From NCBI GenBank assembly GCA_021733835.1, contig JAIPKD010000006.1, forward strand, positions 211 to 64,210: a stretch of DNA of 64,000 nucleotides. Direction: 5' to 3'. Position 1 is the first letter of the stretch. Each line of letters begins with the position of its first letter. The notes beneath the pieces were generated by a model. The model was not told the DNA's origin. It searched no databases and saw only the letters and a program-made list of their open reading frames with translations. The stretch is from Verrucomicrobiota bacterium. GTDB lineage: Bacteria > Verrucomicrobiota > Verrucomicrobiia > Limisphaerales > JAIPKD01. Positions 318-53,949 of this stretch are shown here, one piece after another. A program made the translations under genes and the position numbers.

Positions 318-3300
318 CTAAGGAATAACCAGCCGGTAGAAGCGCGTTTGTTGGGGCGATGGATCGGTGATTGTGATGTCTTGCGTTGTTTCGGGTGCGG
401 GTATGTTTGTTAATACATTCCATTCACCGGTGTTTATGTCTGCGCTGTATATAATGCGATATATCCTGCCCGGTATGGCGCGGAAGCGGAGTAGTGTTTC
501 GTTGTTTTTGATACTAATGGATTTCAGCCTGAACACACTATTGGGGTCTACGGGCACGGTGCCGCAGGTAAATTCATCGAGATTCGATAGACCATCGCCG
601 TCTGGGTCGGCGTCGGCTCCGTTATCGCCGGTGGCGCTGAACGGGTCGAATCCGAATTCAAGTTCCCATGCGTCCGGTAGGCCGTCGCTATCGTGATCGG
701 GCACGGCGGGGGTGTTGTTTGTGCTTCCCGGCGTGGCGTGTGCGCCCGTCCAGTTGATCGGATCATCGCCGTAACATGCGTCATTTATGCGCTGGATCGA
801 GTAACCGGTTCCGTTGGAATTGGTGGGCCATGGTGTATTCGGCGAGTAAGTAACGTGATCGACCGGAATGCAGGGTACATCTCCATCCGGTTGCGGCGTA
901 TCCGGTCGAAGTAAAACGATTTGGTCGCCGGCGTTGTTTAAGCGGCCGTTGAACGGTCCGACAAGTTTTGTGTGATCATCCAATTGATACTGCGCGCGGA
1001 ATGCATCGGCTGATTCGGTATCCGTATCCGGATTGAATCCCACGACAACCAGTAGTCCATCGGAGGGCACAGTTGTATTGGTTGGGAAACCGAACTCGAT
1101 GCCATTGCTCAGGCGCCATGTATTCCATGGTTCTTGCGGATTGAAGAGGGGGACATTGGTTTTGGTAATATTACGGAGCTCGATGAATTCGTCTCGCAGG
1201 TTATTCGTGCCGTCCAAGAGTGGAGGTTCGTACATGATTTCATTGATAACGACCGGCCCGATCCTAGGCCCCGAATTATGGGCGCCGAGTGTCGGTTCTG
1301 ATTGGATAATGAAGTGTTCGTTGCCTGTACTGACTACATGTCGTCCAATAGTGGCGGCTTCGGGGGCGGCGCTGAAATTGAATCCGTGAATATATCCCGT
1401 CAGGTTGCTGGCTGTGTCGGCGGAGAACAGATAAATTTCTTCGCCTTGGGCGTTTAAAGCGAAGCATTCGGAAGAGTCGGGGCTTGAGTTGAAGTCGTCT
1501 TCGTCAAAGACCATGAACGCATTTGACCGGATAACGGTCTGATCGGGGATTCTGAATTTATGCGGTGTTTGGATATCATCGGTTAGGAACCAGCCGCCGA
1601 TATCGACCGGTTTATCATTGGGGTTGTAGAGTTCGATGGTATCCGTAGCGGGAGGTGTGGTGTGTGTGAGTATTTCATTGACCAGGACACGCGGGATATC
1701 TGTTGGTGTTGTGTTCTGAGTTCCGGGTGTTCCGCCTGAAATGCCCGAGCTTAGCCATCCATCGCGTCTGCTCCATGCGTCGGGGCCGGCGGATTCATCG
1801 GCGACTATTAACGAGAAGCCGGCGCCGTCCGTTCCGGGGAACCAATCGTCGTGGTATTCAAATGCGAGGATGTCTTCACCGTTTGCGTCTATCAAACGTA
1901 GGTATTCACCGTCGTTTGCCAGGTTTCCGGTATACTCACCGGCGATACGTTCCACGTTTTGGTAACGCGTCTGGAATGCATCGAGACTCTTGACTACGAC
2001 GACGCATCCATTCGGGGCGAGTGTTGTGACCTGCGAACCGGCGAAATTGAAGGCAATTCCGTTTACGAACCGGACGCCGCTCAAGTCCAGGGTCGAGTCA
2101 CTGATGTTCTTAAGCTCGATGAATTCGAAGTCGTCGTTATCGACGCCGGGTATTGCGGAGGACTCGTCTGCCGTGGGTGCGGCGGGATTGTAATAGAGTT
2201 CCGAGACGATTAATGCGGCGGCGGAGGCAGGGGGGAACTCGGAGAACAGTGCGGTAGCCGGGCCCGACCACTTACTCGAGAGCGGCGGATTGTTGGGGCC
2301 TGTCAGACTTTGATGGCCGGGATCGAATACTCGGGTTGTGACGCGGGTTTTGGAGGTGAATGAGATCGGTTCCGAATAGACCTTTGCCGAGGGCGAAACG
2401 CCGCCGCCGGGCAGTCGTGGGTCTGTCCCGTCCAAGGTATAATAAACGGTGCTGTTATTTGGAGCATGTATTGTGAGTTCTGTTCCGGGTTGTATTACGC
2501 CGCCGGCGGGATCGAGCATGGGCGGCGCAACAAATTGGCTGTCAATGAAGTCGATGCGTTGAGAGAACCAGTCTTTGAGATGTATGACTTCACCGCGGAA
2601 TCCACCGAACCGCGGGGTTTGTCCCCAGCGATCGAGGTCACGCTCCTGCGCTTCCAGTAGTTCCAAAGCCATGGAGTTTATTAATGAATGGATGTTATTT
2701 TCACTGAAAGTGCCTTTTCGTAGTTCCTGCCATCTGTCAATGTATTTCTGGAAGAAGTCTATGTCTGTGAACATTTTCCCCCACCAAATGTAATTGAAGA
2801 AATCGGTGCCGCGATCGCCGGTCTCGGCGCGCCAGACGTATGGATTATCATCGCGTCCGTCCGTCGAGCCCATTGATCTGTCGAAGTCCCAGATGGGGCC
2901 GAACTCGAGTTTCCCGCCGCGTTGTTTATGTATATAGGTACTCAGACGCAGGGCGTCGACGTTGAAGGCGAGGACATTGATCAGGTGGTGATCGATCGCG
3001 GCGTCGACGTCGATGTATTTGGCGTAGCCTGTCTCCGGGTCATCGAAGTCGGGGCTGTTCAATGCCTGTCCGAATTGGTTGAAGTAGTCATTAACGTATT
3101 GCTCCTGCGGTTCGCGGATTGGTTGTTCTATTTCTATTTCCTTCGGGTCGACGTAACAGATTGTTTGTCCCGCCGCATTGAAGCCGGTGTCGCCGGGGTC
3201 CAGCCGGTCGATCTTAAAGATATACCCGCCGGTGATCCACGGCTTGCGGTCGTTGTCGGTGAAAAGTTTATCGACGTCTACACGGTCGTCGTCGCGCTTG

Positions 3301-5274: not shown

Positions 5275-7260
5275 ATGAAAGTATCAATTGAGAGAATTTT
5301 TATGAGTGTAATAAGAGGCGTATATTGGAGGATCATGATTTTACCGGCATTGATCTGTTTCGCTTATTCCGGTATGGCAGTCGAGTGTTACGTGGTGCCG
5401 CCGTTGAGTGTGAATGTTTTCAAAACAACAAGCCCGGCGGCTGACGGCTCGCGTGAAGCGCCGTTCTATAAGGTTTCCGACGCAGTTTCAAAGTTGCGGG
5501 AGCTCAAGACCGCCGAGACGAAGCGCATCATCGTCCGCGGCGGCGAGTATTATAACGTCTGCTTGAATCTCGATTCGCGCGATTCGGGGTTGGTTATAGA
5601 AGCCGCCGAGGGCGAGACGCCGGTATTATACGGCGGACAGCCGCTGACGGGATGGAAGAGGGGCGATGACGGATTGTATTATGCCGCGCTTCCGGAGTTT
5701 CCCGAGCCGCCTGCCGATTATAAGGCGCAGCCGAGGGATTGGGAGATTAGGATGCTGGTGGTCGACGGCGTGATGCGTCCGCGTTCCCGATACCCGGTAG
5801 AGGGGCGGCTGGAACATTTATCGGAGTTCGACGTTCCATGGATGAGCTCGACCGGCGGCGGATGGAAGCGTGATCCGACGAGGGAAGAACTCACAACGCT
5901 AAGGTTTAAGGAGGGTGATATAGGCGATTGGCTGGAACCACAGAATGCGGAAGTAACGGTTTACCATATGTGGGACGAGTCGTGCGTGGGTGTAGAGAGC
6001 GTTGATTTGAAAAACCGGATTCTAACCCTTGATCCGGCGACGGGGCACCCGCCGGGTGCGTTCGGTGTAAAGGATTACGTTATTTGGAATACGCGCAAGG
6101 GATTGTCTGAACCGGGACGATGGTATCACGACCGCGCGCGGAACAGGGTGGTTTATCGGCCGATGAAGGGGGAGAACATCGAGGAGGCAAAAGTGCTGGT
6201 GCCGACGCGAACGACGATATTCAGGGTCAAGGATTCGGAGGCGCAGAAGGCGCATAGGATAGTTTTAAGGGGTTTGCGTTTTTCTGTAACTACAGTGCCG
6301 CTCATGGCCGGCGGCTTCGCGGCGGCGCGTTATGACGGTGCGGTTTCTTTGGAGGATACCTCCGACTGCCTGCTTGAGGATATCGTGGTGGCAGATGTCT
6401 GCGGACATGGAATCAATACAAAGGGTGGAAACTCCGGACTCCGGATAATCGACAGCGAGATCGAACATTGCGGCGCCGGTGGTATATATGCCGGCGGTTC
6501 CGGAACCGTGGTATCGAATAATTATGTCCATCATATCGGTATCTCGTATCCGAGCGCGATTGGTATATTCCGCGGCGGCCGGGGGAATGTCGTTTCGCAT
6601 AACGAGATACACGACACGTCGTACTCGGCCGTGAATTACGGTGGGATTTCGAATGTTGTAGAGTCGAACCTGATTTATCGATGCATGCAAGTGCTCCACG
6701 ACGGCGCCGCCATCTATATGTTCGCTGCGAAGGATTGCGTGCTCCGCGGAAATTTCGCTAGGGACATAATCGATACCGGCGGTTACGGGGCATCATCATA
6801 TTATTTAGATGAGCGGAGCACCGGATGCGTCGTCGAGCATAATTTAAGCCTCAATGTAGCGCGTCCTATCCATAATCATATGGCGACCAATAACGTAATT
6901 CGCGATAACGTATTCTTTGCCGGCGGCGACATGAAGCTTACATTCCCGCGCTCCGTCGGATTCGAGATGGAGAATAATATTATCCATGCCGGCGGCAAGA
7001 TAAGGATCGAGAACTGGGATGCGGTGACTAATTGGAACGACAACGTGCTTTTCAGCGAGACCGGCGAGATCGAAAGGATTGGGTTCAAGGATTATTCGGC
7101 TGTTGAAACAATACACGGCCCGCCGCCGAACACGATCATCGACAATCCGATGTTATCCGACGATATCACCAATGGTTTAGTCCGGTTCAAGGATAACTCG
7201 CCATTAAGTGATCTGGGATTCGTGCCGCTTGATGTATCATCGGCGGGGAGGATCGAGTAG
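5275..7260 (+). CDS. Right-handed parallel beta-helix repeat protein (pectate-lyase fold), probably a secreted polysaccharide-active enzyme
   Basis: 661-aa ORF with a hydrophobic N-terminus. Stacked beta-helix repeat motifs (IIDSEIEHCGAGGIYAGG, NNYVHHIGISYPSAIGIF, VSHNEIHDTSYSAVNYGG, VVESNLIY, VIRDNVFF, MENNIIH). Confidence 0.7.
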   Translation: MKVSIERIFMSVIRGVYWRIMILPALICFAYSGMAVECYVVPPLSVNVFKTTSPAADGSREAPFYKVSDAVSKLRELKTAETKRIIVRGGEYYNVCLNLDSRDSGLVIEAAEGETPVLYGGQPLTGWKRGDDGLYYAALPEFPEPPADYKAQPRDWEIRMLVVDGVMRPRSRYPVEGRLEHLSEFDVPWMSSTGGGWKRDPTREELTTLRFKEGDIGDWLEPQNAEVTVYHMWDESCVGVESVDLKNRILTLDPATGHPPGAFGVKDYVIWNTRKGLSEPGRWYHDRARNRVVYRPMKGENIEEAKVLVPTRTTIFRVKDSEAQKAHRIVLRGLRFSVTTVPLMAGGFAAARYDGAVSLEDTSDCLLEDIVVADVCGHGINTKGGNSGLRIIDSEIEHCGAGGIYAGGSGTVVSNNYVHHIGISYPSAIGIFRGGRGNVVSHNEIHDTSYSAVNYGGISNVVESNLIYRCMQVLHDGAAIYMFAAKDCVLRGNFARDIIDTGGYGASSYYLDERSTGCVVEHNLSLNVARPIHNHMATNNVIRDNVFFAGGDMKLTFPRSVGFEMENNIIHAGGKIRIENWDAVTNWNDNVLFSETGEIERIGFKDYSAVETIHGPPPNTIIDNPMLSDDITNGLVRFKDNSPLSDLGFVPLDVSSAGRIE

Positions 7261-7323
7261 TGGAAATTGCCGGTCTTTTTTCTGAGATCGGGCGCGGGGA
7301 AGGGGGGCGCCCATAAAAAAATT

Positions 7324-7398
7324 GGCTGTCCGACTAGGATTCGAACCTAGACCAAAGCCTCCAAAGGGCTTTGTGCTACCATTACACCATCGGACAGC
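7324..7398 (-). tRNA. tRNA-Gln (anticodon UUG)
   Basis: Reverse complement reads GCTGTCCGATGGTGTAATGGTAGCACAAAGCCCTTTGGAGGCTTTGGTCTAGGTTCGAATCCTAGTCGGACAGCC. It has a 7-bp acceptor stem (GCTGTCC/GGACAGC), anticodon stem AAGCC/GGCTT with loop CTTTGGA (U33, UUG, G37), and a T-arm CTAGG-TTCGAAT-CCTAG. CCA is not encoded. Confidence 0.9.
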
Positions 7399-7495
7399 AC
7401 GATTTAACCCTACACAATCTTCAGGATGTATCAAAGGAAAAATTACCAGCAATTCTAATTATGGATACCTGGCGCACAGGTGAGTGGTGTCTGGA

Positions 7496-7664
7496 GATAA
7501 ATTGCGATAATCCGTATAATATCGGGCGTGATCAATCTTCGGAGCGCGACTGTGCTGAAAGCCGGTCGCGGATGTCTGAAGAAGACGTTGCCCCCGGTAA
7601 TCGAATAAAGCCATGGCATTCGAGGCCGCTGCGGCTGATCCTTCGGACACACCCGCGCTCCGCC
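7496..7664. repeat. Copy A of an unclassified structured intergenic repeat family (5' plus central modules)
   Basis: Near-identical to 14252-14422 and highly similar to 49268-49436. It contains a local hairpin (cgcgac 7545-7550 / gtcgcg 7565-7570) and a 9-bp long-range complement (cggagcgcg 7540-7548 / cgcgctccg 7654-7662). Confidence 0.85.
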
Positions 7665-7755
7665 TAAAATGAGAACTGCTGAAGGAAAACTCAATGAACT
7701 TGATCAAGATTCACCATTCTGTTATTACGAAAAAGTACAATTAAACTATCTTTCT

Positions 7756-12960: not shown

Positions 12961-13043
12961 ATCCGTGTGTTGGTATCTCTGTGAGAGCATTTTTCGAAGA
13001 GAGATAGGGAGGTACGATCACGCAACGAAGGATCGATCCCATT

Positions 13044-13172
13044 AGCCGCGCTCCGCAACCCTTACCGTTCGCGTTCCCGTCCGGATTAATAAATTTGAAA
13101 GAAATTCTAATGATCGAAACCGACCACGGACATCACGGGAATCGCGAACGTGAACGTAGCCGGAATCGAAAC
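13044..13172. repeat. Partial repeat-family copy: junction motif plus long-loop hairpin module
   Basis: agccgcgctccgcaaccc..ccgttcgcgttcccg (13065-13079) pairs with cgggaatcgcgaacg (13136-13150, one bulge). The architecture parallels 14411-14505 in copy B. Confidence 0.6.
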
Positions 13173-13259
13173 TTCTTTGCGTCCTTCGCGCCCTTGGCGA
13201 GGTACATTTTCTCTCGCAAAAACGCTAAGACCGCCAAGTATATCCACGAATAATTGCAT

Positions 13260-13495
13260 GAGCTGTGAGCTGTGAGCTGTGAACGGGGAAAGGGGAGGTG
13301 CAATGTCGGATTATGGGGTAAGGATTCATCAGGATTACGGATTAAAGGAGGCCAGGAGGAGAGCTAAGTATGGTTACCCACCCCTTTCATCCCCTCCGGT
13401 GGAGGGGATCATTGTATAGTTCCCCTCCTTGGAGGAGTAGGGCTGGGTTTTTCCTCCGCGCAAGAGAAACCTCAACAGCTCAACAGCTTAATCAT
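13260..13495. repeat. Hairpin-rich intergenic element bounded by inverted short tandem repeats
   Basis: 3x gagctgt tandem at 13260-13283 on the left. On the right, 2x caacagct at 13473-13492, an approximate reverse complement. Internal G/C hairpins cccctccggtggagggg and cccctccttggaggag. Confidence 0.6.
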
Positions 13496-13559
13496 TCAAA
13501 ACCGGGACTTACGCTTTTTGTTGGGCTTTTTTTGCTATAAATATTTCATCCCTAACGGG

Positions 13560-13723
13560 ATTCTGGAAGGCGAAGGCGCTTGGCAATCGGATGAAGGCGT
13601 AGCATTCAAAGCTGCTGTGGCTGATCCTTCGGACACAGCCGCGCTCCGGCGGATTGAACGCGACTGTGCGTATCAAGGACATTTTATTCTGATAATTCCC
13701 GCTATTTATTAGCTTTTTAAGCA
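13560..13723. repeat. Copy D of the repeat family (central plus 3' modules only)
   Basis: 13582-13723 aligns with 49364-49506 (ggcaatcggatgaaggcgtagcattc..gctgatccttcggacacagccgcgctccggcggattgaacgcgactgtgcgtatcaaggac..ctatttattagctttttaagca). Confidence 0.8.
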
Positions 13724-13731
13724 ATTTACCC

Positions 13732-14166
13732 CTAGCTCACCGATGGCAGCCCCTCCGTAACTCCCGAATTACCAAGCGGCGCCGTGGGGCCGCCATTCGG
13801 TGGAGCGCCTGGTTCGCTATTGCTGCTCACGCCTGCTCGTCGCCGGATGTGGATGTACGGTAGCATCAGGAGGCACAGTATGACCAAGTGGAAACAGGCG
13901 GCTTTAGAGTCTGTTGTGCCGATGGCAACCAGTGTGCCAACCGTAAATAGGATCAGCCCCTTGTGTCCTACCTGTGGTTTTATAAAGTACGCACCTGCGG
14001 CAAGCACCATTCCCAAGCAAAGCAACTGAACCGTTACAGGCACGGTTCCGGCATCACTACGAAAATTGATGATTGCGTAGCGCAGCAGTGAAATAGAACA
14101 CAGCACCAAATACAATCCAGCGATCACCGTAATGTACCAGTATCTTTTGGTTTCCTTCATGGCCAT
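13732..14166 (-). CDS. Small integral membrane protein (about 4 TM) with a Pro/Gly-rich tail, hypothetical
   Basis: 144-aa ORF with four hydrophobic segments. No recognisable family. Confidence 0.5.
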   Translation of the reverse strand: MAMKETKRYWYITVIAGLYLVLCSISLLRYAIINFRSDAGTVPVTVQLLCLGMVLAAGAYFIKPQVGHKGLILFTVGTLVAIGTTDSKAACFHLVILCLLMLPYIHIRRRAGVSSNSEPGAPPNGGPTAPLGNSGVTEGLPSVS

Positions 14167-14251
14167 ATTCTAGTTAGCGAACCATTCGATTACTAGGAGA
14201 TATTTCCTACTATGTTGATATTAGTCGACAACCTGGGAACACTTTTCTAGT

Positions 14252-14520
14252 GATAAATTGCGATAATCCGTAAAATATCGGGCGTGATCAATCTTCGGAG
14301 CGCGACTGTGCTGAAAGCCGGTCGCGGATGTCTGAAGAAGACGTTGCCCCCGGTAATCGAATAAAGCCATGGCATTCGAGGCCGCTGCGGCTGATCTTTC
14401 AGACACAGAAGCGCTCCGCACCCCCCCTGTACGCGTTCGCGTTTTTCGTATAGCATCATCGACTGCGAATAACCAGAATCAGAATCGGGAATGCGAACGC
14501 GTACGTGTACGCGAACAGAG
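14252..14520. repeat. Copy B of the repeat family (5' plus central modules) with an appended long-loop hairpin
   Basis: 14252-14422 is near-identical to copy A. It is followed by a perfect 12-bp inverted repeat, gtacgcgttcgc (14430-14441) / gcgaacgcgtac (14494-14505). Confidence 0.85.
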
Positions 14521-14537: not shown

Positions 14538-15239
14538 TTACTTTTTGCAGCGGAAACTGAGTATGTCGTAGTCGAGCACCGTATAATCCTTGGTTTCCAA
14601 GCGCATTTTCCCGGCGCGTTTGGCGCCTGTTTCTCCGCCGTATTGGATTAAGTCTTCGAAGCTGATCACCTCGGCGCGGATAAAGCCTTTTTGGAGATCG
14701 GTATGGATTTCAGAGGCGGCGTCTTTTGCCGTGGTACCATTTGGGATTAGCCAAGCCCTATTTTCCTTTCCGCCGACGGTGGCGAAGGAGATGTAGTCCG
14801 AGAACTTGACTGCGTCGGAGACGAGTGCCGGCCAGTTTTCTGCGTCAATGGACGGCTCCGAGACAACCGGCTTCAGAGTGATCCATTTTCTGGAACCGAG
14901 CAATTTCTTCTCGGCGGGTGTCAGCTCGAGTGTGGATATAAACCGTTCTTGCTCGAGGGCGTCTTGGAGTTTTACAAGGAGCTGTTTTTCGTCATCCTCC
15001 GGACTCCTGGCGAGTCTGGTTTCTATAAACTCCAGGTCTTCAAGGATGAGGTCACTAATGTATTCCTTTTTGGTAATAATCGCGTCGGCCTCGTTCAGGT
15101 CGTCGGCATCGGTTACCTCGATCGTCGCATAAGCTTTTTTCTTGGCTTCGACCAGTTCGTGAATTTGATCGAGCCGCGTGTCGCGGACATTGTGATTGCC
15201 GTTTTGGATATCCGTTAAATTATAAGCGCAGATTTTCAT
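14538..15239 (-). CDS. YchF-like protein lacking the P-loop GTPase/ATPase motifs (helical insert plus TGS/DUF933 C-terminal domain only)
   Basis: The C-terminus [72 protein letters not shown] matches the YchF C-terminal domain. There is no GxxxxGK(S/T) motif anywhere. The protein is 233 aa versus about 360 for YchF. Confidence 0.7.
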
Positions 15240-15408
15240 TTGTCGGTTTCGAGGATTGAATGCCCGAAAGCAAGGCGAAGTTATGTAAAGAAAAAGAGCG
15301 GTGTTGTCAAATTATTTATATCGGCCTCTTATCTCGGATAAAGGGAAGGCAACGGCATATTGGGCGTATTATATTGAAATTTCGGTATTTGCGAATATTG
15401 TACACACG

Positions 15409-47255: not shown

Positions 47256-49235
47256 ATGAAGAGGAATAGTATGCGTGCAATTATAATTCCATTGATTATT
47301 GGTACGGTGTGTTTGGGAGCGGATTTTGTTAAATTGGAGAGGTTGAACCTGAACAAGGCGCGCCAGGGTTGGGGCGCTCCACAGCTCGGCAGGTCTGTGA
47401 TAGGACGTCCGTTACGGGTCGGGGGCGAGGAGTTCAAGAGCGGCGTGGGCACTCATGCGTCCGGTGTCATTCTTGTTGAGTTGAACGGCGAGTGCGAACG
47501 CTTCCGGGCCAAGGTGGGGGTTGACGATGAGACGGATGGCAAGGGATCGGTTCGGTTTAAGTTGGTTGCGGACGGGCGCAGGGTGTTTCAGACCGATGTA
47601 GTGTGTGGCGGCGATAAACCTGTCACTGTCGATGTCGATCTTCAAGGTGTCGAGCGGCTTGCGCTTGTCGTAAGTGATGCCGGGGACGGCATGGCCTACG
47701 ATCATGCAGACTGGTGCGAGGCTGAGTTTATAACCGGGCCTGGACTTATTGAGGTTCGCGATTTGCCGCGGGAGGAACGTGAGATACTCACGCCATCACC
47801 GCCCGGTGAGCCGCGAATTAACGGACCGCGCCTTTATGGGGTGCGGCCTGGCAGTCCGCTTCTCTTCAAGATTCCAGCAACCGGCGAGCGTCCGATGGAG
47901 TTTGCGGTGCGGGGATTGCCGGAGGATTTGGTCGTCGATACCGATACCGGGATTATTACAGGTTGTATCGAGTCCGATGAGCATAAGACGTATAAGGTAG
48001 AGCTCATTGCAGAGAATCGGCTTGGAAGAGATAGTCGGGAATTCAGTATCGTGGTTGGTGATAGGATCGCGCTCACTCCGCCAATGGGTTGGAACAGCTG
48101 GTATGTACACGAGCATAGGGTGACCGACGAAGTGATGAGGGCGGCGGCGGATGCGATGGTCAATAGCGGATTGGCCGATCACGGATTTCAATATGTATCG
48201 ATCGACGATTGCTGGATGAACGCCGAGGCGCACAGTGACCCCTCACGCGTGGGTCCGTTGCGTGATGAAAACGGTGATATCCTGCCGAATTCGAATTTTC
48301 CGGATATGAAGGCGATGACCGAATACATCCATTCGAAGGGACTGAAGGCGGGGATTTATACGTCGCCGGGATCGCGCACTTGCGCCGGGTTCTGCGGGAG
48401 CTACGGACACGAAGCGCAGGACGCCAAGCGTTTCGCTGATTGGGGATTCGATTTGCTTAAGTATGACTGGTGTTCTTACACTCGGATAGCGAAAGACAAT
48501 AGCAGAGAAGAGTTAAAGAAACCGTATGCGCTGATGGGGAGGATTTTGCGCAAACAGGATAGGGATATTTTACTTAATATCTGTCAATATGGGATGGGCA
48601 AGGTTTGGGAGTGGGGTGCCGAGGTCGGCGGTAACAGTTGGCGTACCACCGGCGATCTCGGATGGAGTTTCGAGGATATCCCGCAGGCGATGTTCAGGAT
48701 CGGTTTCGGTCAAAACGGTCTTGAAAAATGGGCAGGACCCGGGCATTGGAACGATCCGGACTATCTTTTACTTGGATATATCAGTAACTGGCGGGGAGGC
48801 ACGGCTATGACACCGCTAAGTCCGAACGAGCAGTATACGCATGTGACGCTATGGTGCCTGCTTTCTGCGCCGTTGTTTTTAAGCGGTGATATAACGCGTT
48901 TGGACCCGTTCACACTGGGGCTGTTGACGAATGACGAGGTGTTGGCGGTCAATCAAGACCCGCTGGGACGCCAAGCCCGGCGCGTGTCAAAGGACGGTGA
49001 CCTGGAGGTATGGGCTAAGGAGATGGAGGATGGATCGAGAGCCGTCGGGCTTTTTAATCGAGGGCCCGTGGCTGAATATGTAACCGTGCATTGGCCGGAT
49101 ATCGGGATTAACGGCGTTAGAAGAGTCAGGGATTTGTGGCGATGCGAAGATATCGGTGAGTTTGAAGGGAAATTCGAGGCCGTGTTGCCGAGGCACGGTA
49201 CGAAGCTGATAAGGGTATTTGATGAAAAAAAATAG
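47256..49235 (+). CDS. GH27-family alpha-galactosidase with an N-terminal NPCBM domain
   Basis: NPCBM block (GVGTHASGVILVELNGECERFRAKVGVDDET). GH27 blocks (TPPMGWNSWY, QYVSIDDCW, KAGIYTSPGSRTCAG, DLLKYDWC). Confidence 0.9.
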   Translation: MKRNSMRAIIIPLIIGTVCLGADFVKLERLNLNKARQGWGAPQLGRSVIGRPLRVGGEEFKSGVGTHASGVILVELNGECERFRAKVGVDDETDGKGSVRFKLVADGRRVFQTDVVCGGDKPVTVDVDLQGVERLALVVSDAGDGMAYDHADWCEAEFITGPGLIEVRDLPREEREILTPSPPGEPRINGPRLYGVRPGSPLLFKIPATGERPMEFAVRGLPEDLVVDTDTGIITGCIESDEHKTYKVELIAENRLGRDSREFSIVVGDRIALTPPMGWNSWYVHEHRVTDEVMRAAADAMVNSGLADHGFQYVSIDDCWMNAEAHSDPSRVGPLRDENGDILPNSNFPDMKAMTEYIHSKGLKAGIYTSPGSRTCAGFCGSYGHEAQDAKRFADWGFDLLKYDWCSYTRIAKDNSREELKKPYALMGRILRKQDRDILLNICQYGMGKVWEWGAEVGGNSWRTTGDLGWSFEDIPQAMFRIGFGQNGLEKWAGPGHWNDPDYLLLGYISNWRGGTAMTPLSPNEQYTHVTLWCLLSAPLFLSGDITRLDPFTLGLLTNDEVLAVNQDPLGRQARRVSKDGDLEVWAKEMEDGSRAVGLFNRGPVAEYVTVHWPDIGINGVRRVRDLWRCEDIGEFEGKFEAVLPRHGTKLIRVFDEKK

Positions 49236-49237
49236 GG

Positions 49238-49506
49238 ATTTGCTTTTTTATCGTGAGGTCTAGTAACAAATTGCGATAATCCGTAAAATATCGTGCGTGA
49301 TCAATCTTCGGAACGCGACTGTGCTGAAAGCCGGTCGCGGCTGTCTGAAGAAGACGTTGGCCCCGGTAATCGAATGAAGCCGTGGCATTCGCAGCTGCTG
49401 CGGCTGATCCTGCGGACACAGCCGCGCTCCGACGGATTCAACGCGACTGTGCGTATCAAGGACAGTTTATTCTGATAAATGTCGCTATTTATTAGCTTTT
49501 TAAGCA
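49238..49506. repeat. Copy C of the repeat family: the only copy with all modules (5' leader, 5', central and 3')
   Basis: 49268-49436 aligns with copies A and B. 49364-49506 aligns with copy D. The leader 49238-49265 matches 52073-52100 at 25/28 positions. Confidence 0.85.
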
Positions 49507-49514
49507 AATAAGCG

Positions 49515-51758
49515 CTAGTACCTTTCCCCTATCGTCTGCGCCCTAATCACCCTGTAAAACGCAGCGGAACTTTGCGTGTTCGTGTCCGAAATATTCGCCA
49601 CAGATCCGTCTCCCCAAATGGATTCAAGCAAATACCACGATCCTTCATTCAGAGTGGACGATTTCAGCACCTGGTAATTTTCGCCGGAGTCGGTCTGAAC
49701 ACCAAAGCCGAAGGTGCCCGTCGCTGAATCAAAGCTGGGCGGAACAGCGATTTCAGGATCCGGCAGCGGATCACCTGAATCAAAGTATGTAAAATCAATG
49801 TTATTGGCTACCGCACCTGCAGAAATAACAACGGTTGATGCTGTATTGGAATTGGCATTCGCATACCACTGCTCATCAACATCATTATATAACAAGCGCA
49901 GCTTATAACTGCCCGGCGGAATACTCGGAAGCGTGTAGTCGAACGTGAACTCACTGATCATTCGTGAGAAAAGCAGGCTACCTCCTGAAGCATCGTAAAA
50001 TTCCATCGTACCGTTGACTCCATGCATAGAATCAGCACCAAACACAGCGACGTGTCCGTTGATTAATCCCGTAGAAGGATTATTTACAACGGTAAGCAGC
50101 GTCCCGTCACCGGCTACGCCGTTCGTCGTTGTAGCCGAACTCTGGAACAAGTATTTCCCGGGTTTCGTATTTTCAGATATGGTGAACTCATACGTGTGCT
50201 GCGAGTTGTCGCCATTCCACCAGCTGTCATGCGTCTCCAGTCCCAGATCGCTCACGCTATAGGAGTAATAGGTCATCGGATCGCTGGCCAGACAGACCAG
50301 CATGTTTGTGGAATTCGGATCATTGCTCATTATCGGGTCCATGAAGTGATGAGAAAGAATAGACGGTGAAGCCGGAATGGACGACGATACGCTGAAATTG
50401 GTAGCTGTTCCGTCAGGCAGAACGGCCTGAAGTACTGCACTTCCTGTGGCATGCGGCAGAACGTAGAGACTTCCCCACAAAGACGGTTCCTGAAACACAT
50501 TAATTTGTGCCGGTGCCGAACTGCTCCAGACCGGTTTTGGAAGATCGTCGGTGATGTCATTTCCCAAGGTATCCATAATCTGCAATGAAGCCGTTACCGG
50601 ATCCTGAGAAGTAAACGTCGTCCCGTCCACATCCAGCGTACAGCTAGCAACTTCACGAACATCCACCTGAAAAGAAACCTCTCTCGGAGGCAGGCTGGTT
50701 TCGACGGCACTGATCACGACCGTATGAATCCCGGTACTCATTCCGGTTGTATCGAAATAGAGCACCGATCCGCCCTCCGTCATCATAGGGTTCCTGCTGA
50801 AAGTCGCCGTGGGATAGCCGGGCACACTCATCGTAACGCCGTTGGTTGGTGTAAACCCGTTTTCAAATATCGCAAAAACATCCACTTCGATCTGCTGTCC
50901 TGCAATTACTACGGGAGATTTAGATTGGGCTTCCACAAAAAAGTGCGGGCTGGAAACCGACAGTTCCCGTCTGCGGAGCGTCATCGTACCGTCCACTTCC
51001 ACACTGAGCATTCCGCCATTAGAAACTGAGTCAACCAGCACGGTGACGGCTGTCTCCGTCCATGTCTGAACGGTTACACCATTGGTCTTTCCATCAACAT
51101 ATACCGTATCCGCTTCGCTTCCGAAATTGCTGCCATTGACTGTAACCGTTTCGCCGTAGGCGACCGATGGCGGTGAAATAGACTGCAAAACCGGGATCGG
51201 TCCGGCAACCAGTCCTTCCGAAGACGTCAGCGAAGCAGAATCAACAAGCACCCCGTAATCACCGGATGTTAATAAAATCTGAAATCCCACAAGCCGGTCT
51301 GCATCAGCGGGAAACAAATATGAATCGCTAAATGTTGCAAAACTTCCATCCGGAACAAGGGCATTATCAGGACTCAGCACTGTAACCGTTTCCCGGTCGC
51401 CGGCCAACGTCATATACTCCAACTCTACAGCGGCAACGCTACCCGGGAGCAGCCCGCCCCAGTCGGGTCCGGCGACATCCAGACTGACCTGCACCGTTTT
51501 GTTTGCCACGCCTTCCACATTCAGGGGCTGACTGACAATTACACCGCGATAATCCATTACCGGCGGATCCAGACTGATAGCTCCGGATACATGATCATAA
51601 GGAATCCATGACTCCAAAGCGGGATCCACGCTCCAATACTCAAGTACAGAATCGAATTCGCCGTCTGTGAGCAACTCATCGGCCAGTGCTCCGCTCCATC
51701 CTGCAGAAAAAAGAACCCCGACCGCCACAATACACTTAAACATTTTACACATATTCAT
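49515..51758 (-). CDS. Secreted IPT/TIG (Ig-like) repeat surface protein, hypothetical function
   Basis: Signal peptide. IPT/TIG-like segment (PVLQSISPPSVAYGETVTVNGSNFG). Long beta-rich Thr/Ser/Val-rich sequence. Confidence 0.65.
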   Translation of the reverse strand: MNMCKMFKCIVAVGVLFSAGWSGALADELLTDGEFDSVLEYWSVDPALESWIPYDHVSGAISLDPPVMDYRGVIVSQPLNVEGVANKTVQVSLDVAGPDWGGLLPGSVAAVELEYMTLAGDRETVTVLSPDNALVPDGSFATFSDSYLFPADADRLVGFQILLTSGDYGVLVDSASLTSSEGLVAGPIPVLQSISPPSVAYGETVTVNGSNFGSEADTVYVDGKTNGVTVQTWTETAVTVLVDSVSNGGMLSVEVDGTMTLRRRELSVSSPHFFVEAQSKSPVVIAGQQIEVDVFAIFENGFTPTNGVTMSVPGYPTATFSRNPMMTEGGSVLYFDTTGMSTGIHTVVISAVETSLPPREVSFQVDVREVASCTLDVDGTTFTSQDPVTASLQIMDTLGNDITDDLPKPVWSSSAPAQINVFQEPSLWGSLYVLPHATGSAVLQAVLPDGTATNFSVSSSIPASPSILSHHFMDPIMSNDPNSTNMLVCLASDPMTYYSYSVSDLGLETHDSWWNGDNSQHTYEFTISENTKPGKYLFQSSATTTNGVAGDGTLLTVVNNPSTGLINGHVAVFGADSMHGVNGTMEFYDASGGSLLFSRMISEFTFDYTLPSIPPGSYKLRLLYNDVDEQWYANANSNTASTVVISAGAVANNIDFTYFDSGDPLPDPEIAVPPSFDSATGTFGFGVQTDSGENYQVLKSSTLNEGSWYLLESIWGDGSVANISDTNTQSSAAFYRVIRAQTIGERY

Positions 51759-52053: not shown

Positions 52054-52072
52054 TCGCTTCTTAAAGGTAGAA

Positions 52073-52100
52073 ATTTGATTTTTTATCGTGAGGCCTAGAA
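52073..52100. repeat. Isolated copy of the repeat-family 5' leader
   Basis: atttgattttttatcgtgaggcctagaa versus atttgcttttttatcgtgaggtctagta at 49238-49265 (25/28 identical). Confidence 0.7.
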
Positions 52101-52305
52101 TAGTACGCTGAAGGACTGGGGCAAGCAAAATGTGCCGGAAAATGAATGGCCGAGAATCCTCGGCCTGACCGCCGGCGAGGGAGCGCGGCACGTGTTTTTT
52201 GACCCTTGTGGAAACAAAGCCCGTCACCATAAGCCCCGCGCGGATTTTTTGAATCCATAAGGACGCCCCGGTTTACCACCTCCTTGAATGCGTTTCAGAC
52301 GGCTG

Positions 52306-52435
52306 TCACTTCCACCCGTAGTAACGAATCAGATGCTCGCCGGGATCGGGGATGTGCTGAGTGACTTCGGCCAAAAAATCGAGCGGATCGAGCACTTGAA
52401 AGTTGCGCTTCGGCCCGGCCAGAAGATACTCCCTG
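52306..52435 (-). mobile_element. IS91-family (Y2/rolling-circle) transposase gene fragment, degenerate
   Basis: The minus-strand translation ..AAREYLLAGPKRNFQVLDPLDFLAEVTQHIPDPGEHLIRYYGWK* matches the conserved IS91-type block (LDxLEFLAxxxxHIPxxGxxxxRYYGxYSN). It is truncated at both ends. Confidence 0.65.
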
Positions 52436-52548
52436 GCCGCTTCGGGGAATCGACACATCCGGTTGTTATCCTTGTTGGGTTAAACGGCGAGTGTGAACGC
52501 TTCCGGGCAAGGGTTGGTGTTGACGATGAGACGGAGGGCGGGGGCGAT
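52430..52548 (+). pseudogene. NPCBM-domain fragment, a degenerate duplicate of part of the GH27 gene
   Basis: STHPVVILVGLNGECERFRARVGVDDETEGGG parallels GTHASGVILVELNGECERFRAKVGVDDETDGKG. The nucleotide match covers 52461-52540 versus 47461-47540. Confidence 0.75.
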
Positions 52549-53949
52549 TCATTTTGATTGCAATTGTTTTATCAGCATTTCATGTAGACCGCCGAAACCG
52601 CCGTTGCTGAGTATGCAGACGATGTCGCCCGGCCTGGTTGAATTCAAGAGCCGGTGTGCGATTGATTCCGTTGTGGGCAGGTGGAAGGCGGAGACGCGGG
52701 ATTTAACGAGATCATCGATAATTTGCTGTGGATCGAGGCGTTCGGATGCCTGTAATTGGTCGATACGATTTACTTGAGCGATTATTACGGCATCGGCGAG
52801 GCTGAGCGCGGCGGTCAGTTCTTTTTGGAATATATTCCTGCGTGTCGTATTCGAGCGTGGTTCGAATACGGCCCATATCCTGCGTCCGGGGAACCGCGTT
52901 TTCAGTGCCTCGAGGGTTTGTCTTACGGCGGTCGGGTGGTGCGCGAAGTCATCGATGATACCGACGCCGCCGAAGATGCCGCGGTCTTCCATCCTGCGTT
53001 TGACGCCTTTGAATGTAGCGAACGCGGATTGTATTTGATGGTGGTCGAGGCCTGCATGATATGCGCAAATAGCGGCGGCCGCGGCGTTTTGAATGTTAAA
53101 GGCGCCGTTTAGGGGGACGGAATAAGCGTCGCCGTTGAGTTTGAAATTCGAGTGTGTTTCGGAGGCTTGAATACCGGTTATCGCGTACTCCGCGTCTTTG
53201 GTGAGGCTGAAGCCTGTCGTCCGGCACGGCGCCGTGTCGAGCAGGCCGGAAATGTTCGGTGAGTCGCCGTTTGTAATGAGCAATGCGTTCCGGGGTATGA
53301 TATTGATGAATTGTCGGAAAGACTTACGAACGGCATCGAGGTCTTCGAAGATATCCGCGTGGTCGAATTCGATATTATTGATTATAGCGATTTCGGGGAT
53401 GTAATGAATGAACTTGCTGCGTTTATCGAAGAAGGCCGAATCGTATTCGTCGCCTTCGATAACGAACCAATCGCTTGGGGTGAAGGCGACGCCTTTGTCG
53501 AAGTTACGCGGGATTCCGCCTATTAGGAATCCGGGGTTTAGTCCGTTATGTTCAAGCGTCCATGCAATGAGTGAGGCGGTGGTGGTTTTGCCGTGGGTGC
53601 CCGTGACGACGATCGCTTTTTTATCGCGCAGGAAAAACTCTTTAATCAACTCGGGCAGTGAGAGGAAAGGGAGTTTATTATCGAGGATATATTCAACTTC
53701 CGGGTTGCCCCTTGAGACGGCATTGCCGATAACGACGAGACCAGGCCGTGGTTCCAGGTTATTTTCGGAGAACCCGTTGGTTGCCGCAATTCCGTTTTGT
53801 GCCAGGAATGTGGACATCGGCGGATACGTGTTCAGGTCGGAGCCTGAGATGGTGTATCCGCGGTTTTTCAATTCCACCGCCGCGGCGGCCATGGCCGTGC
53901 CGCTGATGCCGATGAAATGAATGGAGCGAATATCACTCTGACCGTTCAT
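52549..53949 (-). CDS. mpl: UDP-N-acetylmuramate:L-alanyl-gamma-D-glutamyl-meso-diaminopimelate ligase (murein peptide ligase)
   Basis: IHFIGISGTAM..GSDLNTYPPMSTFL..VIGNAVSRGNPEVE..VTGTHGKTTTASLIAWTLE..GDEYDSAFFDKRSKFIHY..FDHADIF..DDFAHHPTA..SNGGFGG is collinear with E. coli Mpl. The start is placed at MNGQSD (ATGA overlap with the upstream stop). Confidence 0.9.
   Translation of the reverse strand: MNGQSDIRSIHFIGISGTAMAAAAVELKNRGYTISGSDLNTYPPMSTFLAQNGIAATNGFSENNLEPRPGLVVIGNAVSRGNPEVEYILDNKLPFLSLPELIKEFFLRDKKAIVVTGTHGKTTTASLIAWTLEHNGLNPGFLIGGIPRNFDKGVAFTPSDWFVIEGDEYDSAFFDKRSKFIHYIPEIAIINNIEFDHADIFEDLDAVRKSFRQFINIIPRNALLITNGDSPNISGLLDTAPCRTTGFSLTKDAEYAITGIQASETHSNFKLNGDAYSVPLNGAFNIQNAAAAAICAYHAGLDHHQIQSAFATFKGVKRRMEDRGIFGGVGIIDDFAHHPTAVRQTLEALKTRFPGRRIWAVFEPRSNTTRRNIFQKELTAALSLADAVIIAQVNRIDQLQASERLDPQQIIDDLVKSRVSAFHLPTTESIAHRLLNSTRPGDIVCILSNGGFGGLHEMLIKQLQSK

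Follow-up and report, generated by a model that had tools for sequence, protein, structure and literature searches.

Intergenic repeats of a Verrucomicrobiota genome as probable REP doublets of a RAYT-associated family

The intergenic repeats in a 64-kb window of a Verrucomicrobiota genome (the window being the whole stretch of DNA that was analysed) are very likely REP doublets, similar to REPINs and BIMEs, of a Verrucomicrobiota REP family; they form head-to-head heterodimers with co-duplicated flanking modules and were probably mobilised in trans by a RAYT, now or once. The term head-to-head heterodimer is taken from Di Nocera et al. 2013 (PMC3733652). Elements of the REP/REPIN type are small, non-autonomous pieces of DNA that are spread through bacterial genomes by a dedicated tyrosine transposase, the RAYT. 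The repeats thus belong to a kind of element that is already known, here in a phylum that has been little studied, and do not form a new RNA family. The initial annotation had left the repeats unclassified, a label that can be given up: two REP units in inverted orientation make up each core, and in related contigs RAYT genes have this unit at their flanks.

Three full copies (A, B and C), one half copy (D) and one relic (E) are present in the 64-kb window, all of them on the + strand and intergenic. Repeat search, blastn and word counts agree that the repeats are real, lie where they had first been placed and stand far above chance. By repeat search and blastn, copy B (~14246-14419) is 95% identical to copy A (~7490-7663), the part of copy C that can be aligned with A (~49259-49432) has 90-93% identity to A, and positions 13582-13735 of D are 88% identical to positions 49365-49518 of C. 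Overall, copy C spans 49259-49518, copy D 13553-13735 and relic E 13031-13076, with inter-copy distances of 0.7 to 35 kb. Among the words of the window, the 18-mer AAATTGCGATAATCCGTA occurs 3 times where 0.06 occurrences are expected, and CGGAGCGCG occurs 7 times where 1.6 are expected. All window copies share a single orientation, which would fit transcribed elements too. The parts of the copies are as follows.

Copy A, 7490..7539, + strand: 5' extension, conserved in A, B and C and lying outside a canonical REP doublet
Copy A, 7540..7571, + strand: REP-L, CGGAGC GCGACTG T GCT GAA AGC CGGTCGC GG
Copy A, 7572..7627, no strand: spacer, 56 nt between the REP units, with a centre that is variable across the family
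Copy A, 7628..7662, - strand (tag strand): REP-R, CGGAGC GCGGGTG T GTCC GAA GGAT CAGCCGC AGC, with 1 stem mismatch
Copy B, 14246..14295, + strand: 5' extension
Copy B, 14296..14327, + strand: REP-L
Copy B, 14328..14383, no strand: spacer
Copy B, 14384..14418, - strand: REP-R, decayed, with 2 mismatches in the outer stem and the inner stem TCT-TTC-AGA
Copy C, 49259..49308, + strand: 5' extension
Copy C, 49309..49340, + strand: REP-L, with the tag CGGAAC, 1 change from the consensus
Copy C, 49341..49396, no strand: spacer
Copy C, 49397..49431, - strand: REP-R, intact, CGGAGC GCGGCTG T GTCC GCA GGAT CAGCCGC AGC
Copy C, 49432..49518, + strand: 3' module, common to D, starting with the truncated REP-L-like piece AACGCGACTGTGC
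Copy D, 13553..13613, no strand: diverged spacer, REP-L missing
Copy D, 13614..13648, - strand: REP-R, with 1 mismatch at the stem foot (CAGCCAC)
Copy D, 13649..13735, + strand: 3' module, 88% identical to the C module
Relic E, 13031..13076, + strand: remnant of a REP-R end plus ~25 nt of B-type flank

The window thus holds 3 left units, 4 right units and 1 relic. A hairpin-pattern search of the whole window matched the units of A, B, C and D only, with 0.8 matches expected. REP-L is identical between copies A and B, and the 3' module common to C and D measures 87 nt, its end coinciding in both copies with the stop codon of a minus-strand neighbour (gene 49515-51758 for C, ORF 13732-14166 for D). 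Copy D has also kept a diverged spacer, which places its start near 13553 and corrects the extent first given. A fragment at 13044-13062 had been assigned to the family and is a true relic; when 13047-13076 is aligned to the end of B plus ~25 nt of B flank, the score is 32, as compared to 14.7 +/- 2.1 for shuffles. The second fragment so assigned, 52073-52100, does not belong to the element, as it matches only the 36 nt located 5' of copy C (49228-49263) and constitutes a separate small repeat. Occurrences of CGCGCTCCG in the beta-helix gene (6947-6955) and of GGAGCGCG at 52180 are without hairpin context and were taken as chance. The recurrence of cgcgactgtgc in the 3' part, seen earlier, is found at 49440-49452 and 13656-13669.

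The intergenic location that had been noted for the copies is borne out, as all of them lie between ORFs of ordinary Pfam content, the neighbours being a beta-helix protein, GH62, a YchF-like protein, an alpha-galactosidase, a TIG protein and MurC. Copy A lies directly 5' of an ORF beginning at 7669 and, as reported, close to a tRNA-Gln gene (7323-7396), the distance being ~95 nt. Copies C and D are flanked by convergent gene ends. The closest other homologues of the alpha-galactosidase beside copy C are at most 66% identical and lie without synteny.

Each core consists of two inverted hairpin units, ~56 nt apart, with their CGGAGC tags facing outward. The unit is laid out as CGGAGC, a 7-bp stem GCG(G/A)CTG, a bulged T, an inner stem-loop, CAG(C/T)CGC and AGC; with an inner stem of 3-8 bp and a GAA or GCA loop, its length is 31-35 nt. 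With two hairpin units paired in inverted orientation, the long-range complement of the initial annotation (cggagcgcg...cgcgctccg) is to be read as two outward tags plus the feet of the stems; its extent was given correctly (9 bp for A and 8 bp for B, with 1 mismatch in C). The local hairpin cgcgac/gtcgcg is indeed present in the sequence, as is the double change of tcc-ttc-gga to tct-ttc-aga. The same annotation had seen no terminal inverted repeat, but the two hairpin units that make up the element are related to each other and inverted.

When 31 partner arms were located by the hairpin alone, the onset of conservation was sharp at position -6, with C GGAGC preceding the stem and AGC following it. 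Covariation of the inner stem was assessed for its three innermost pairs in 42 unique arms that carried no constraint from the search pattern. Watson-Crick pairing was found in 114 of 126 cells, as compared to 64 +/- 4 for shuffled arms, and none of 2000 shuffles reached a value as high. Pair 2 is TA in 21, CG in 13, GC in 4 and AT in 1 of the 42 unique arms, and pair 3 is CG in 17, GC in 14 and TA in 10. The outer stem exchanges GC, AT and TA pairs, with pair 4 being GC in 31 and AT in 10 arms. In an alignment of the window doublets with those of the L059 type (L059 being a metagenome locus described below), 95% of the cells are paired, versus 28-40% when the 3' partners are slid. Compensatory variation in the stems is strong, and the hairpin is under selection, its structure being maintained by compensatory change. 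The loops are mostly GAA or GCA, frequently within GCGAAGC, and as DNA, d(GCGAAGC) forms a mini-hairpin of notable stability.

The two units fold best on opposite strands. As DNA, the left unit reaches -10.1 kcal/mol on the tag strand (z = -3.1 for REP-L of copy A) versus -7.8 on the complement, and the right unit reaches -8.7 kcal/mol on its tag strand versus -6.1 on the complement. REP-R of copy C folds at -11.0 kcal/mol (z = -2.8), and REP-R of copy B at only -4.4 kcal/mol (z = -0.24). Family-wide, G.T pairs number 32 on the tag strand versus 15, a weak signal because the sequences are related. Because the tag strands are opposite in the two arms, recognition of single-stranded DNA is a better fit than one common transcript. 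In the window copies, complementarity between the two arms extends over 9 bp at most, with each of them folding into its own hairpin, so the single long hairpin of classical REPINs is impossible here.

The initial annotation had offered three options, and among these the REP-like one stands. A second option was that of small-RNA genes. We regard a reading as such genes, or as cis-regulatory leaders, in which a + strand transcript would form a closed multi-stem RNA domain, as very improbable. Copy A does fold well as RNA on the + strand (-70.1 kcal/mol, z = -3.4, with z = -1.5 on the - strand), the four copies share one orientation, the stems covary, and copy A is located just upstream of the ORF at 7669 with a promoter-like TGGAGA-17-TATAAT. 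However, the good RNA fold of copy A follows from its palindromic build, and copy C as RNA is unremarkable (z = -1.7 and -2.0 on the two strands). The promoter-like site is confined to A, without a conserved counterpart in B or C, and a scan found no terminators after any copy. In Rfam, the copies have no match at the gathering threshold or at E <= 10 other than a best one on copy C with E = 0.62 and half the gathering score, and the whole window yields the tRNA-Gln alone. The optimisation of the two hairpins on opposite strands, the occurrence of doublets in both orientations and as near-perfect palindromes in other genomes, and the bracketing of RAYT genes by the same units all argue against a reading as RNA, as does the position of C and D between convergent gene ends. 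The small-RNA option is thus left without specific support from Rfam, from conserved promoters or terminators, or from the folds, which lie on opposite strands.

The link of the REP doublets to a transposase comes from related loci. In the metagenome locus L059, an ORF at 682-1377(-) of 231 aa scores 86.9 bits (cutoff 80) on the NCBIfam model NF047646, 'REP-associated tyrosine transposase', and 34.4 bits (cutoff 23) on Pfam Y1_Tnp, with its score on transpos_IS200 (19.6 bits) being below the cutoff of 55. The sole PDB relative of this protein is E. coli TnpA-REP (4ER8), whose HMH and YIYINP align with HVH and YIENNP of the L059 protein, these being the HUH motif and the catalytic Tyr. The RAYT gene of L059 lies between two doublets, at 559-683 and 1421-1543, after which come a further two. 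The left arm of the L059 doublet, GGAGCGCGACTGTGCTGAAAGCC(A/G)GTCGC, is that of the window, and the right arms match too. Together with ~110 nt of the adjacent gene start, the L059 doublet is repeated three times.

For each of five further homologues with 84-69% identity (in L070, L073, L074, L077 and L078), CGGAGC-tagged units or doublets lie within ~50 nt on either side of the gene. RAYT genes bracketed by CGGAGC units are thus found in 6 of 6 independent loci, and it is by this signature that a REP-RAYT pair is defined (PMC5581495; PMC3733652). The two most distant homologues have a shorter stem, GGAGC GCGG(G/C)TC TG(T/C)G GA(C/G)CCGC AGC, and across the five homologues the REP stem varies together with the RAYT protein. 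Homologues of the L059 protein number 4212 at E <= 1e-20, and the JGI name for many of them is 'REP element-mobilizing transposase RayT'. By motif search and tblastn, a RAYT was found neither in the 64-kb window nor in loci L001-L034. Weaker RAYT-like ORFs in L057 and L058 have no Pfam hit, the one in L058 giving only a partial tblastn match, and these were not counted.

The pattern of the right arm was found at 34 loci in GTDB genomes and at 35 metagenome loci, that is, at 69 loci in total. About 25 of the GTDB loci are from one Verrucomicrobia MAG (MGR_bin444), where the copies are spread over many contigs, and the remaining ones are from four further Verrucomicrobia MAGs and from a few contigs that have probably been mis-binned. 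Viral contigs scanned with the arm pattern gave 0 matches. In the related loci the element consists of CGGAGC-GCGGCTG-T-GTCC-GAA-GGAT-CAGCCGC-AGC, ~60 variable nt and the reverse complement of the unit. In these loci we counted 34 doublets, with a spacer of 40-126 nt (median 58) and a median total length of 123 nt; the doublets elsewhere occur in either orientation and are near-perfect palindromes. A metagenome scan for the window-type spacer GAAGAAGACGTTGNCCCCGGTAATCG returned 0 hits, and among 78 fetched loci the 5' extension, spacer and 3' modules of the window were seen only in L075, which is from the window's own genome. The arm sequence has no match in the searchable literature. For the units of the other loci, extragenic location was assessed from ORFs spanning them, but the outcome was discarded, as these GC-rich sequences give spurious long frames (e.g., antisense to the RAYT of L059).

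These loci also bear on two readings that involve other enzymes. MITEs such as the Correia elements of Neisseria, ERIC and RUP depend on DDE transposases for their movement, which produces target-site duplications. The repeats could accordingly be pictured as a deletion derivative of a DDE-type IS, moved in trans via its terminal inverted repeats and bordered by target-site duplications. They resemble MITEs in being short (~120-175 nt), non-coding, multi-copy and intergenic, with inverted ends of at least 9 bp, and in being foldable when transcribed. But there are no direct repeats at the borders in the window or in the 69 loci, and both arms form conserved hairpins of their own with compensatory changes, a feature for which DDE terminal repeats have no need. 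The arms are linked to no transposase other than the Y1/HUH RAYT (6/6 loci), and in ~570 kb of fetched loci there is neither a DDE transposase with these ends nor a parent IS. We therefore give a MITE origin hardly any likelihood.

The other reading, the third of the earlier options, takes the repeats as attC-like or other site-specific recombination sites, whose single-stranded hairpins would be used by an integrase. Imperfect inverted arms around a variable centre, with one orientation in the window, are what such sites would look like. The spacing, ends and neighbour genes, however, do not fit attC: the window copies are 0.7-35 kb apart among housekeeping and glycosidase genes without a cassette array, the ends are CGGAGC/GCTCCG without the RYYYAAC/GTTRRRY core, no integrase gene lies beside the copies, and in MGR_bin444 the copies are dispersed on many contigs. 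The probability of this reading is next to nil.

RAYTs are HUH/Y1 transposases of the IS200/IS605 superfamily. For the REP doublets, the proposed mechanism would operate on single-stranded DNA, e.g., at the replication fork, where each unit would fold into a two-tier hairpin on the strand that is read tag first. A RAYT, encoded by a single gene elsewhere in the genome, would then read the hairpin and the tag, cut, and rejoin the strand. In this way the doublet would be copied into new intergenic sites without target duplication, and the 5' extension and the alternative 3' modules would represent flanking DNA or partial pieces of REP clusters duplicated along with it. The window's genome presumably carries a RAYT, and the copies of the window were presumably moved by RAYT action. 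The hairpins may in addition have a host role, e.g., in mRNA 3'-end protection or in termination for the convergent genes beside C and D.

Whether the window copies are still mobile is a separate matter. They may be immobile relics or host-adopted hairpins that descend from REP doublets whose RAYT was lost or silenced, and that now are neutral debris or act as mRNA 3'-end protectors, terminators or protein-binding sites; we regard this as a reasonable if rather unlikely account. It is in keeping with the right-unit stem mismatches (1 in A, 2 in B with a fold z of -0.24, and 1 in D), the 5-10% divergence of the copies and a window without a RAYT. REPs of E. coli at gene 3' ends stabilise the upstream mRNA, and C and D abut minus-strand stop codons, which is where those REPs do so. 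Various host roles of REPs have been listed (PMC3733652). Against relics stand the left unit, which is the same in A and B, the right unit of C, which is intact, and the wider family, which is maintained as seen from compensatory changes and RAYT linkage. The stem mismatches in the units of A, B and D nevertheless indicate that at least some copies are decaying relics. This account concerns present activity and not identity, and it overlaps with the explanation as REP doublets.

As REP doublets, the repeats have several known counterparts. The REPIN-RAYT systems of Pseudomonas and Enterobacteria reportedly consist of REP doublets copied by a RAYT (Nunvar 2010, Bertels & Rainey 2011, Ton-Hoang 2012, Messing 2012; PDB 4ER8). 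The elements described here share with them the inverted pair of short palindromic REPs around a spacer with a tag at the hairpin foot, the repeated occurrence between ORFs (within the window), a Y1/HUH gene bracketed by the units (in related contigs), the absence of a target duplication, and a linked protein that is above the NCBIfam RAYT equivalog threshold and matches only E. coli TnpA-REP in the PDB. They differ from them in having CGGAGC and not GTAG, and in their two-tier hairpin, in which a 7-bp stem is followed, after a bulged T, by an inner stem and a GAA-type loop. Further differences are that the window copies are heterodimers with arm-arm pairing of 9 bp only, that their copying unit is enlarged by 50 nt on the 5' side and by alternative 3' modules, that they come from Verrucomicrobiota, and that the 64-kb window is without a RAYT.

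BIMEs of Escherichia coli combine REPs of the Y and Z types in alternating orientation with fixed linker motifs, and bind IHF, gyrase or Pol I. The window copies are similar in their mosaic, modular build, with two REP variants and recurring linker or flank modules that are partly shared among copies (A/B versus C/D), and in having truncated units and relics; the sequences are unrelated. In IS200/IS605 elements, TnpA reads subterminal hairpins on single-stranded DNA. The transposase superfamily (Pfam Y1_Tnp) and the logic of recognising hairpins on one strand are the same here, but such an IS has a transposase gene of its own, enclosed by ends that differ from each other, and occurs in multiple copies as a whole, whereas the hairpins described here are dispersed without the gene, and the linked protein scores 86.9 bits on the RAYT model as opposed to 19.6 on the IS200 model (cutoff 55). 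Within the phylum, Opitutus terrae (Verrucomicrobia) has the REP families GTAG-17 and GTAG-19 (Di Nocera et al. 2013, PMC3733652). These also form REP hairpins arranged as head-to-head or tail-to-tail dimers with a link to a tyrosine transposase; their dimers have spacers of 1-2 bp and GTAG, as against spacers of 40-126 nt (median 58) and CGGAGC in the present family. REP dimers, heterodimers, flank-carrying clusters and REPs of Verrucomicrobia have thus been described already (PMC3733652; PMC5581495). The CGGAGC tag of the present family differs from the GTAG and CGTC classes, and the linked RAYT clade is large.

Most REP families have GTAG or CGTC (PMC3733652), and CGGAGC is neither of these. 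The copying unit in the window also exceeds a canonical REPIN by its 50-nt 5' extension and its alternative 3' modules. It is conceivable, although we hold it to be unlikely, that the family represents a distinct, phylum-wide REP-RAYT lineage of Verrucomicrobiota, with CGGAGC falling outside GTAG/CGTC, a two-tier hairpin with bulged T and GAA-type loop, a unit that would be near-invariant across species while the RAYT has diverged to ~70% identity, and a copied unit that is enlarged in the present genome. If true, the enlarged copied unit would mean that RAYT-type elements can capture and spread adjacent DNA, e.g., 3' ends for neighbour genes.

The main value of the assignment is for annotation, in that such repeats can be labelled or masked as REP doublets in Verrucomicrobiota MAGs and not taken for new RNAs. 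With it, REP-RAYT pairs for which a concrete consensus can be given are now also known from uncultured Verrucomicrobiota of soil and peat, and the set of co-varying RAYT/REP pairs could be used for studying how these transposases read hairpins. REP doublets also explain contig breaks in assemblies of these genomes. As one indirect sign of dispersal within the window's genome, an independent Logan assembly of this genome (run SRR12088347) stops 171 nt past the stop codon of the alpha-galactosidase gene, within copy C, which is where a break is expected of a dispersed repeat.

At the metagenome locus L059, adjoining the gene for the REP-associated tyrosine transposase (RAYT), there are three repeats of a segment made up of the REP doublet and about 110 nt from the beginning of a small gene (340-470, 1797-1905 and 2109-2225). 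Here DNA flanking the doublet has clearly been duplicated together with it. The small gene has a faint match to DUF4256 (E = 0.006, below the cutoff).

In an independent assembly of the window's own genome (L075, Logan SRR12088347 contig), the locus ends at about window position 49406, so that the contig is broken within REP copy C, 171 nt past the alpha-galactosidase stop codon, behaviour typical of a dispersed repeat. Contigs bearing the Verrucomicrobia-type REP were also found within MAGs assigned to Bifidobacterium, Saccharimonadales, Acidoferrum and Proteobacteria (L012, L014, L025 and L027). Because the sequence of L014 is the same as that of L033, which belongs to Verrucomicrobiia, sequence identity suggests that these contigs were mis-binned into their MAGs.

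Among the GTDB-genome loci L001-L034, chiefly of the Verrucomicrobia MAG MGR_bin444, many left arms have some 39 nt inserted within the REP stem, GTAACCGCAAAGCGGTTCGTCGTTTCTATAGTTCTGGTT, placed between GCGGC and TGTCC. In these loci both orientations of the spacer were found relative to the insertion-bearing left arm, and some copies are ringed by further outer palindromic modules (GCGCATCTTGACGTTGCTACG, TTGCGCACAAAGCCCC and GCGGCGAAGCCGC) as well as by runs of CACAGATG. Examples are listed below, together with features of the window.

Variant REP loci in MGR_bin444 and features of the window
L006 3074-3230 and L024 2115-2270: examples of the variants described above
13250-13480, within: GAGCTGT, three copies in tandem
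13250-13480, within: CAACAGCT, two copies
13250-13480, within: short palindromes, e.g. CCCCTCC-GGT-GGAGGGG
14538-15239, minus strand: YchF-like ORF, 233 aa, YchF-GTPase_C and TGS domains
49228-49263 and 52063-52098: 36-nt direct repeat, two copies, 83% identical, AAAAATAGGGATTTGCTTTTTTATCGTGAGGTCTAG

The gap between relic E and half copy D (13250-13480) is crowded with other small repeats, those listed among them, which may represent a second type of hairpin module. The 36-nt two-copy repeat is not a REP unit; one of its copies follows the alpha-galactosidase stop codon at once, just 5' of copy C. Within the ORF at 52288-52557 (+), beside MurC, 52438-52548 aligns with 47436-47546: an 81-nt stretch matches a portion of the alpha-galactosidase gene at 85% identity, and at the protein level the identity is 70% across 37 aa of the NPCBM domain. 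The stretch looks like a remnant piece of a paralogous gene.

The YchF-like ORF comprises the C-terminal half only, without the N-terminal GTPase domain; on the opposite strand, a gene for a response regulator begins at 15301. The ORF may be a truncated gene, or else may reflect an assembly error in the MAG.
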